From the sequence record AF056281.1: a stretch of 1,201 nucleotides of DNA. One strand, given 5' to 3'. Made by a program: the position numbers and the translations under genes. Each line of letters opens with the position of its first letter. Position 1 is the stretch's first letter. The notes under the pieces were generated by a model. It was not told where the DNA came from and made no database searches. It saw only the letters and a program-made list of their open reading frames with translations. This DNA comes from a phage. Below, in pieces: positions 1 to 1,201 of this stretch.

Positions 1-646
1 GCGTTCTTTGCTCACNACGNNNAGANAACATGATCCCGGGANAGACNCATGCGNGTTACACCCNCCNCAANACNNANGTGANNNGTCCNATTACCCACNT
101 CTNTGATCCNNGGTCAAANACTGGNNCCNCNGTGTCTNNCNATACTCCGCNAAAGTACGTCTGATTATGCTCTGNGTNCGTTCTGGTGGTNCTCTCTCNT
201 CNNGNCAGACCTACCNANTTGGTGAAGATTCNGGGCCGTCNGTCCANTTGANNCATACTCTANAGTNTTNTGANTCNGATATCANCCCCGTCACGACAGT
301 GGAAGCTGAAAGTTTTAGAACTCCCNTCTATGTGGCTCACTNNNATTATCTNAAGCCTGTGAGTATGTATCANNCTCTCCTTGAGGCGNTGGGGAGCTGC
401 TCNCNATGANTATTNGANGGGTCGTCAACGAAATTTGGTTNAGTNAAACNAACTTCCGCTGGTGACCACTCTNTTNCTCTTNGTCAANCACCACCCAGAT
501 CAACATGNANANTTCATCATTCNNCNATGNCCTAANATCTACTAGTGAGNCACATATAANGAGAGTTCTTTGATCTNCTATCTCNAATCGCCGCTAGGGA
601 AGNTNTNCCAATTCAAAACCCCCTAANTTAGCTCCTNCGCGCACAA

Positions 647-716
647 GGCCGAATCCTTTNNNNNNNNNNNNNNNNNNNNNNNNNNNNNNNNNNNNNNNNN
701 NAAAGGATANGGGGCC
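647..716. repeat. Imperfect inverted repeat (palindrome arms) flanking the N-run
   Basis: Left arm 647-659 GGCCGAATCCTTT has reverse complement AAAGGATTCGGCC. Right arm 702-716 reads AAAGGATANGGGGCC. The 7-mer ATCCTTT (653-659) and AAAGGAT (702-708) are perfectly complementary and equidistant from the gap centre; the outer GGCC/GGCC also pair, with one mismatch, one N and two extra G on the right. Confidence 0.45.
660..701. other. Run of 42 consecutive unresolved bases (sequencing dropout, masked segment or gap)
   Basis: Seen directly: positions 660-701 are all N, flanked by resolved sequence ...ggccgaatccttt on the left and aaaggatanggggcctttt... on the right. Confidence 0.95.
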
Positions 717-839
717 TTTTGNANNNGTGAAAAAAAANTTNGGNGGNTTTGNATTTNGAAATNAAAAGNGCTGGNGCCCCTTGGNGAGCGTNNGGGGTTN
801 TGGAAATCCCNTATGAGGTNANNCAACACTAAAANATTT

Positions 840-1020
840 NNAGGGCNTGGGGGANATAAGAANGNANATNTTCCCTTGGGGGGNANNGGGAAGNTNNTTT
901 NCTANANGGAAGGGAAAAGGGGGGNAGNGTAAAGGNAATTTGGGTAAAANCTAAAATAAAATTTNGGTGGGGNNCGGATTANANAATTNTNNTTNNNANN
1001 GNNAAAGGNGGAAAANGGGA
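840..1020 (+). repeat. Purine-rich, C-depleted low-complexity tract
   Basis: By manual count only about 7 C in roughly 180 positions on the + strand, against abundant G and A runs (e.g. agggaaaaggggggnag at 911-927, aaaggnggaaaangggaaa at 1004-1022). Short motifs AAAGG, GGGAA and CCCTTGG recur. Confidence 0.5.
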
Positions 1021-1201
1021 AATTGAAACTTTAGNATNGTTTTTAANTAATACTAAATAAACCCTAAAGTGGGGGAGTNNTTNGAATTAANTTTTATANT
1101 TTTNTGATTAGGGAAGATATTCCAAGTANAAACACCAAGANTATNGTTCATTTAGGCGCAACAATTNGGAATCCTGNGNTATAAAGTAGATCTTCCAGCT
1201 A

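Follow-up and report, generated by a model that had tools for sequence, protein, structure and literature searches.

Whether the inverted repeat that surrounds an unread stretch in this phage sequence is a property of the DNA or a product of the way in which it was sequenced is the question raised by the present locus. The window, that is, the whole stretch of DNA that was analysed, is 1201 nt long and contains 206 N; single Ns are scattered throughout at about one per 8 nt, and there is a single long run of 42 N at 660–701. The letters to the left of this run (1–659) and those to its right (702–1201) are hereafter called the left block and the right block, respectively, and it is between these two blocks that the inverted repeat was reported.

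The Inverted Repeat around the N Run

On direct reading, atccttt (653–659) and aaaggat (702–708) are exact reverse complements and are both flush on the N run at 660–701, and ggcc is found among the letters of the window at 647–650 and again at 713–716. Further out, the reverse complement of 608–623 is GGGGGTTTTGAATTGG, which gives 11 matches, 3 N and 1 mismatch when it is compared with 742–756 (ggnggntttgnattt), and aantt occurs at both 625–629 and 736–740. The letters that the initial annotation had given for the inner arms, GGCC, the outer arms and AANTT are all borne out by this reading.

The best strict reverse-complement local alignment between the blocks pairs 610–629 with 736–755 at a score of 27.5, while shuffled sequences gave 18.9 ± 1.9 with a maximum of 23.5. 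An alignment of the window with its own reverse complement, as proposed in the initial annotation, also gives a signal above chance, and this signal reaches 199–659 against 702–1201. When scored more permissively, the entire right block in reverse complement is aligned with 199–659 at a score of 47 (shuffle null, −10 ± 5), and this score also far exceeds those of shuffles confined to 10-nt blocks (−12 ± 5). The reverse-complement signal is statistically real and much longer than was first noted, and yet it is no property of the DNA.

Mapping of the Two Blocks to T5-Like Phage Genomes

The window matches 82 records of T5-like phages (Tequintavirus, Demerecviridae). The best match is Escherichia phage Bf23 (OR083247.1) at about 11.1–11.8 kb, and the matched region belongs to the early region of Bf23, just right of the left terminal repeat. 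This Bf23 region was taken as the reference (locus L001, to which the reference coordinates below refer); it is that of a related phage and not necessarily that of the sequenced isolate. BLAST placed window 49–657 on L001 2981–3589 and window 1011–1201 on L001 3429–3615, both on the plus strand. In semi-global alignment, the left block was placed on L001 2940–3591 with a score of 265 and with 69–83% identity of the resolved bases, and the right block was placed on L001 3154–3615, where it scored 176 and its reverse complement −32. In addition, all ten 100-nt segments of the right block are collinear on the plus strand, the junk-like part at 702–1010 included, and their minus-strand scores do not exceed the null.

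By these alignments, the two blocks are of the same strand of one locus, of which they share about 438 bp. With the left block reaching L001 3591 and the right block starting as far back as 3154 on the same strand, the N run is a spacer in which nothing is hidden, and the 42 bases that had been regarded as missing at 660–701 are not missing. The layout of the window is as follows:

1–659, plus strand: left block, read 1, a probable mixed trace; L001 2940–3591, corresponding to OR083247.1 11816–11165 (minus strand of the record)
660–701, no strand: 42-N spacer, artificial; the blocks in fact overlap by about 438 bp, so that their distance is negative
702–1201, plus strand: right block, read 2, in the same orientation as read 1; L001 3154–3615, corresponding to OR083247.1 11602–11141
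224–659, plus strand: first copy of L001 3154–3591, apparently doubled only because the overlapping reads were not merged
702–1175, plus strand: second copy of L001 3154–3591, in direct alignment to 224–659

The right block is primarily a direct copy of 224–659, a relationship that was missed in the initial annotation. When the two blocks were aligned in direct orientation, the score was 38 against a null of −21 ± 4, and another direct alignment pairs 225–657 with 703–1175. The strict local direct match between 595–657 and 1109–1175 scores 32 (null, 18.9 ± 1.9) and is not predicted by a simple palindrome. A palindrome on the scale of the window, in which the right block would be the mere reverse complement of 199–659, is suggested by lenient alignments with N as a wildcard; this candidate was rejected, as the mapping to Bf23 shows the direct orientation.

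The presence of L001 3154–3591 twice in direct orientation in the window is also what a real tandem duplication of about 438 bp would give, in which case the reverse-complement signal would be due to chance or composition. The second copy, however, shows a monotonic quality gradient of the kind seen in a read tail, ending at the N run, and the region is found at a single place in every T5-like record listed among the 82 matches. The signal, moreover, persists against block shuffles, and strand mixing accounts for it at the level of single bases, as described below, so that a real duplication is extremely improbable.

The first 48 nt or so (window 1–48) align poorly to Bf23, with 7 gaps within the first 90 alignment columns; primer-proximal noise, a vector remnant or local divergence could be the cause. 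A plasmid search with the window gave no match, and a vector or plasmid origin is unsupported by it. A 36-mer specific to the reads had no match in viral, metagenome and genome collections. Rfam and tRNA scans of the window found no structured RNA.

Absence of a Palindrome in the Template

One of the explanations put forward in the initial annotation was a strong palindrome or hairpin in the template that stalled the polymerase, the arms flanking an unreadable loop or stem of 42 nt. The arms do complement each other in reverse, abut the N run and exceed chance, but the blocks to which they belong are no neighbours in the genome: L001 3591 is the last base of the left block, and the right block, which is on the same strand, has its first base 437 bp upstream of it, at 3154. 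Furthermore, the clean reference sequences of the arms are not complementary to each other. When the reverse complement of reference 3154–3615 was aligned with reference 2940–3591, the score was −11 and the null was −10.9 ± 7, that is, no signal was found, and a repeat search of L001 2900–3850 gave no pair linking 3154–3215 with 3535–3591.

The complementarity rests instead on miscalled bases. Of 66 columns in which the left block departs from the plus strand of Bf23, 64 agree with the complement of the right block; among the columns in which its call is correct, the agreement with that complement is 59%. The correct bases of the left block show no excess reverse-complement signal and no peak at the register described in the next section. 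A complementarity that is carried by miscalls points to a mixed trace and not to a palindromic template. It can hardly be supposed, then, that a hairpin stalled the polymerase here, and the true palindromic element that had also been considered is not found, because the reference has no inverted repeat and the signal sits in the miscalls.

A snap-back or chimeric clone, whose insert would be fused to its own reverse complement either by hairpin-primed synthesis or as an amplification chimera, had been suggested as well, and it would agree with the alignment of the reverse complement of the entire right block to 199–659 (47 against −12 ± 5). Such a clone predicts, however, that the right block lies on the minus strand, and it lies on the plus strand throughout (+176 against −32). 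The lack of excess reverse-complement signal at the register among the correct bases of the left block speaks against it too, and the similarity is gone once the reference replaces either read (−32 in one case; −11, with a null of −10.9 ± 7, in the other). Almost no weight can be given to this explanation. As to the general suspicion expressed in the initial annotation, the part that concerned a sequencing artefact stands, whereas the part that concerned a template palindromic about the gap falls, the reference being without an inverted repeat and the blocks being of the same strand.

Read 1 as a Probable Double Trace

If the complementarity sits in the errors of the left block, the errors themselves are worth considering. 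They fit the complement of the reference at a nearly constant sum of window and reference coordinates, 3811–3816, in nearly every 100-nt segment, and this register, for which the right block was not used, explains 68–88% of the left-block errors against a background of 24%. Expressed as a sum of reference coordinates, the register is 6743–6745, and when 700 offsets were compared in each third of the left block separately, it came out on top every time (z of 6 to 9). The substitutions that it explains are 35/49, 23/34 and 38/47 in the three thirds (96/130 in total). The minus strand alone explains 95 calls of the left block (31 ± 4 in shifted-offset controls), and about 35 calls are explained by neither strand (99 ± 4 in the same kind of controls), when an indel drift of a few bases is allowed in the register.

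The N calls follow the same register. Only where the two strands differ should a mixed signal be ambiguous, and 6 of the 86 Ns of the left block are found where the strands agree, against 24.4 ± 4.2 expected; another count gave 9/86 against 24.8 ± 4.3. About 21% of the discordant positions in the left block were called as the minor strand. The mixing is present from the first 100 nt of the left block, where 20 of 29 errors fit register 3811, and there is no unmixed lead-in. Judged from these counts, read 1 is interpreted as the superposition of a plus strand, running from 2940 to 3591, and a weaker minus strand, running from about 3805–3811 down to 3154.

The minus-strand component in window 1–100 corresponds to L001 positions of about 3711–3811, which extend as far as about 190 nt past the right-hand end of the window. 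Because this signal is already present in window 1–100, the sequenced fragment should be at least about 0.87 kb long, and read 2 would have been trimmed or would continue outside the window.

The two arms of the reported repeat can be read at the same register:

608–659, plus strand: left arm of the reported repeat, a probable mosaic of plus- and minus-strand calls; the true plus strand is CCAAGTATAACACCAAAGAATATAGCTCATTTAGCGCAACAATTAGGAATCCTGT
702–757, plus strand: right arm of the reported repeat, the low-quality tail of read 2; the reference is GAAGATTATGGGCCTTCTGTACAGTTGAAACATACTCAAGAAGCTTTTGAATCT (L001 3154–3206)

One strand or the other explains 26 of the 26 called bases in 601–630 and 26 of the 28 in 631–659. 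The letters attcaaaa (611–618) are the minus-strand reading of reference TTTTGAAT, for which the right block has tttgnat, and ggcc (647–650) corresponds to reference GGCC(C) at about 3163–3167 read from the minus strand, shown by the right block as GGCC at 713–716. The true plus strand beneath the left inner arm is ATCCTGT, and aaaggat in the right block is a noisy reading of reference GAAGAT. It is the complement of the right-arm bases (L001 3154–3206) that appears in the final part of read 1. For window 659, the last base of read 1, the position of its minus-strand component is 6745 − 3591 = 3154, which is the first reference base of read 2. The minus-strand signal thus has its end at L001 3154 in both reads, and this is why the symmetry abuts the N run.

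When the reverse complement of 702–1201 is aligned to 199–659, there are 16 columns in which the minor strand of read 1 and read 2 both differ from Bf23, and in 15 of them the two agree with each other. These columns may be real differences between the isolate and Bf23 or reproducible artefacts of the minus strand.

Base Dependence and Composition

The show-through of the minor strand depends on the base: it was called 41% of the time for C, 22% for G, 14% for T and 7% for A. Correspondingly, the major strand was called in 87% of cases when its base was C and in only 45% when it was A. Such a dependence favours mixing at the level of the signal, that is, of the dye channels, over a consensus made by software. 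A mosaic could also be produced by software as the consensus of a forward read and an un-flipped reverse read, but this would not predict a bias specific to C.

The same bias is seen in the composition of the window. C occurs 158 times in the left block but 102 times in the matching interval of the reference, and of the 130 substitutions in this block, 66 are to C; the right block, which is displayed reverse-complemented, has an excess of G and is depleted of C, and only 2 of its 68 substitutions are to C. The GC skew is about −0.2 to −0.46 left of the N run and +0.55 to +0.79 right of it. It flips at the gap because spurious C calls dominate both raw reads, the right one of which is reverse-complemented.

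Two other explanations based on composition were considered and rejected. A replication or transcription skew switch at the gap was discarded, the flip being technical. A purely compositional cause of the inverted repeat, with C-rich noise on the left and G-rich noise on the right, is insufficient, as the score survives shuffles in 10-nt blocks; a composition bias does exist, because the C channel dominates, and it is a consequence and not a cause.

Quality of Read 2 and the Near-Absence of Mixing

Read 2 behaves as a reverse read that was written reverse-complemented, clean at 1149–1201 and decaying toward 702. Its identity to the reference is 76% at 702–790, 76–83% left of 1060, 84% at 1060–1148 and 100% (49/49) at 1149–1201. 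Compared with the reference, it has 34 inserted and 3 deleted bases, mostly G and A in homopolymer runs (702–1100), and shows the excess of G mentioned above; the description of the right copy as the noisier one, with extra G and homopolymer calls, was correct. Over-calling of this kind is typical of a fading read tail, and it stretches about 462 bp of the genome to 500 nt of the window. The left block is uniformly poor (69–83%) and shows no quality gradient; it is mixed throughout, so a gradient could not show.

At the register 6743–6745, 27 of the 68 substitutions of the right block are explained, which is rank 7 of 700, and the Ns of the right block are not depleted where the strands agree (19/69, against 19.9 expected). 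The right read is barely mixed, and the cause is to be sought in one sequencing reaction and not in the template. The possibility that one trace had been split into primary and secondary calls was considered separately and rejected, since over the same interval about 8% more bases were called in the right block than in the left, and since the right block has a quality gradient of its own.

Heterogeneity of the template itself would be a different source of two superposed strands: a segment of at least 0.87 kb would be present in both orientations, either as an invertible segment or in a plasmid preparation whose insert was cloned in both directions, and every read into it would superpose the two strands. 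The geometry of a mirror register with a constant coordinate sum of 6743–6745 fits this, and so does the faint signal of the right block at the same register (27/68, rank 7 of 700). Both reads of such a template should be mixed, however, and the mixing is grossly unequal, with about 21% minor-strand calls in the left block and, in the right block, 19/69 Ns against 19.9 and 49/49 identical bases at 1149–1201. In addition, inverted repeats that would flank the segment at the required boundaries are absent from Bf23 (L001 2900–3850), and the left block is mixed from the first 100 nt without an unmixed lead-in. Template heterogeneity is, consequently, very unlikely. Its natural form, a mixture in the phage DNA in which an early segment of at least 0.87 kb exists in both orientations as an invertible segment of a T5-like phage, is barely conceivable; if it were true, the double trace would be biology and not a contaminated reaction.

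Proposed Origin of the Apparent Repeat

From the alignments and counts described above, the inverted repeat is very probably an artefact of two overlapping poor reads that were joined by Ns and of which read 1 is a double trace. Two poor reads of the Sanger type would have been obtained from one T5-like phage fragment of at least about 0.87 kb and placed in the same orientation with the 42-N spacer between them. Read 1 would contain the intended plus-strand ladder and, in the register of read 2, a weaker minus-strand ladder. The base-caller would have turned the two into a mosaic, in which the plus base was mostly called, the minus base was called at about 95 positions, preferentially where it was C, and N was called at conflicts between the strands. 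Read 2 would be a minus-strand read that is displayed reverse-complemented. Since the miscalls of read 1 would be the reverse complement of read 2, an inverted repeat would appear between the two.

The Sanger chemistry is itself presumed. The second ladder may have come from reverse primer present in the forward reaction or from equivalent double priming, for example by leftover PCR primers, by a primer site at both ends or in a mixed well. The contaminating ladder of read 1 would have been primed from the site used for read 2, and both runs may have ended at the same electrophoresis time or fragment size.

Underlying Genes and Consequences for Annotation

Two hypothetical early genes lie under the window, BF23_00021 (phrog_5271) and BF23_00020 (phrog_13456), and both belong to families of unknown function. 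Their coding sequences are at 2749–3357 and 3357–3704 in L001 and together cover 2749–3704, which corresponds to OR083247.1 11052–12007. The region is conserved across the 82 T5-like phage records, and nothing unusual was seen in either gene here. The two Bf23 genes are in the same region as both blocks, and they bear no relation to the reported repeat. Their junction is one of the places at which the show-through can be followed:

424–431, plus strand: end of the BF23_00021 homologue and start of the BF23_00020 homologue; the reference is GTTAATGA, with overlapping TAA and ATG (TAATG)

The window reads gtcaacga at 424–431 in place of the TAATG stop/start. Both the stop and the start are lost because of C calls that show through from the minus strand, and ORF calling on the window would therefore go wrong at this point. 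The window is too error-laden to tell whether the isolate is Bf23 itself.

No feature of biological origin exists at this site, and its significance is one of data hygiene only. To automated analyses, the window suggests a palindrome and 42 missing bases, both of them illusory, and further traps are the false direct duplication of 438 bp, the technical flip of GC skew and the corrupted coding signals. An inverted repeat that flanks an N run in an N-rich sequence can stem from strand cross-talk between mate reads, and a reference-based two-strand test reveals such cross-talk quickly.

Comparison with Known Systems

Superimposed Sanger chromatograms have been described where an indel is heterozygous and where templates differ in length (PMC2429969, PMC13111972). 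The present case is like a mixed Sanger trace in that two sequences would be superposed at a fixed register, with mosaic calls, with ambiguity where the components differ and with clean calls where they agree. It is unlike it in that the components would be complementary strands of one fragment read toward each other and not alleles shifted by an indel. Because the second component would be the reverse complement of the mate read, the mixture mimics an inverted repeat.

The layout of the window resembles the convention of mate-pair scaffolds spaced by Ns, in which two reads of one fragment are given in a common orientation with an N run between them. Unlike in that convention, the gap here is negative (an overlap of about 438 bp), and a false duplication results, 224–659 being repeated as 702–1175; the spacer also hints at absent bases that were never there.

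Stops at palindromes or hairpins and snap-back chimeras share with this window the symmetry about an unreadable centre and the noisier quality of one arm. In contrast to them, the template here is not palindromic, the right block keeps the orientation of the genome, and no bases are absent from the centre. Finally, for invertible segments of the Gin, Cin and Hin type, equal mixing and flanking inverted repeats are expected; here the mixing is strong in the left block and at most faint in the right, and the reference has no suitable repeats of this kind.
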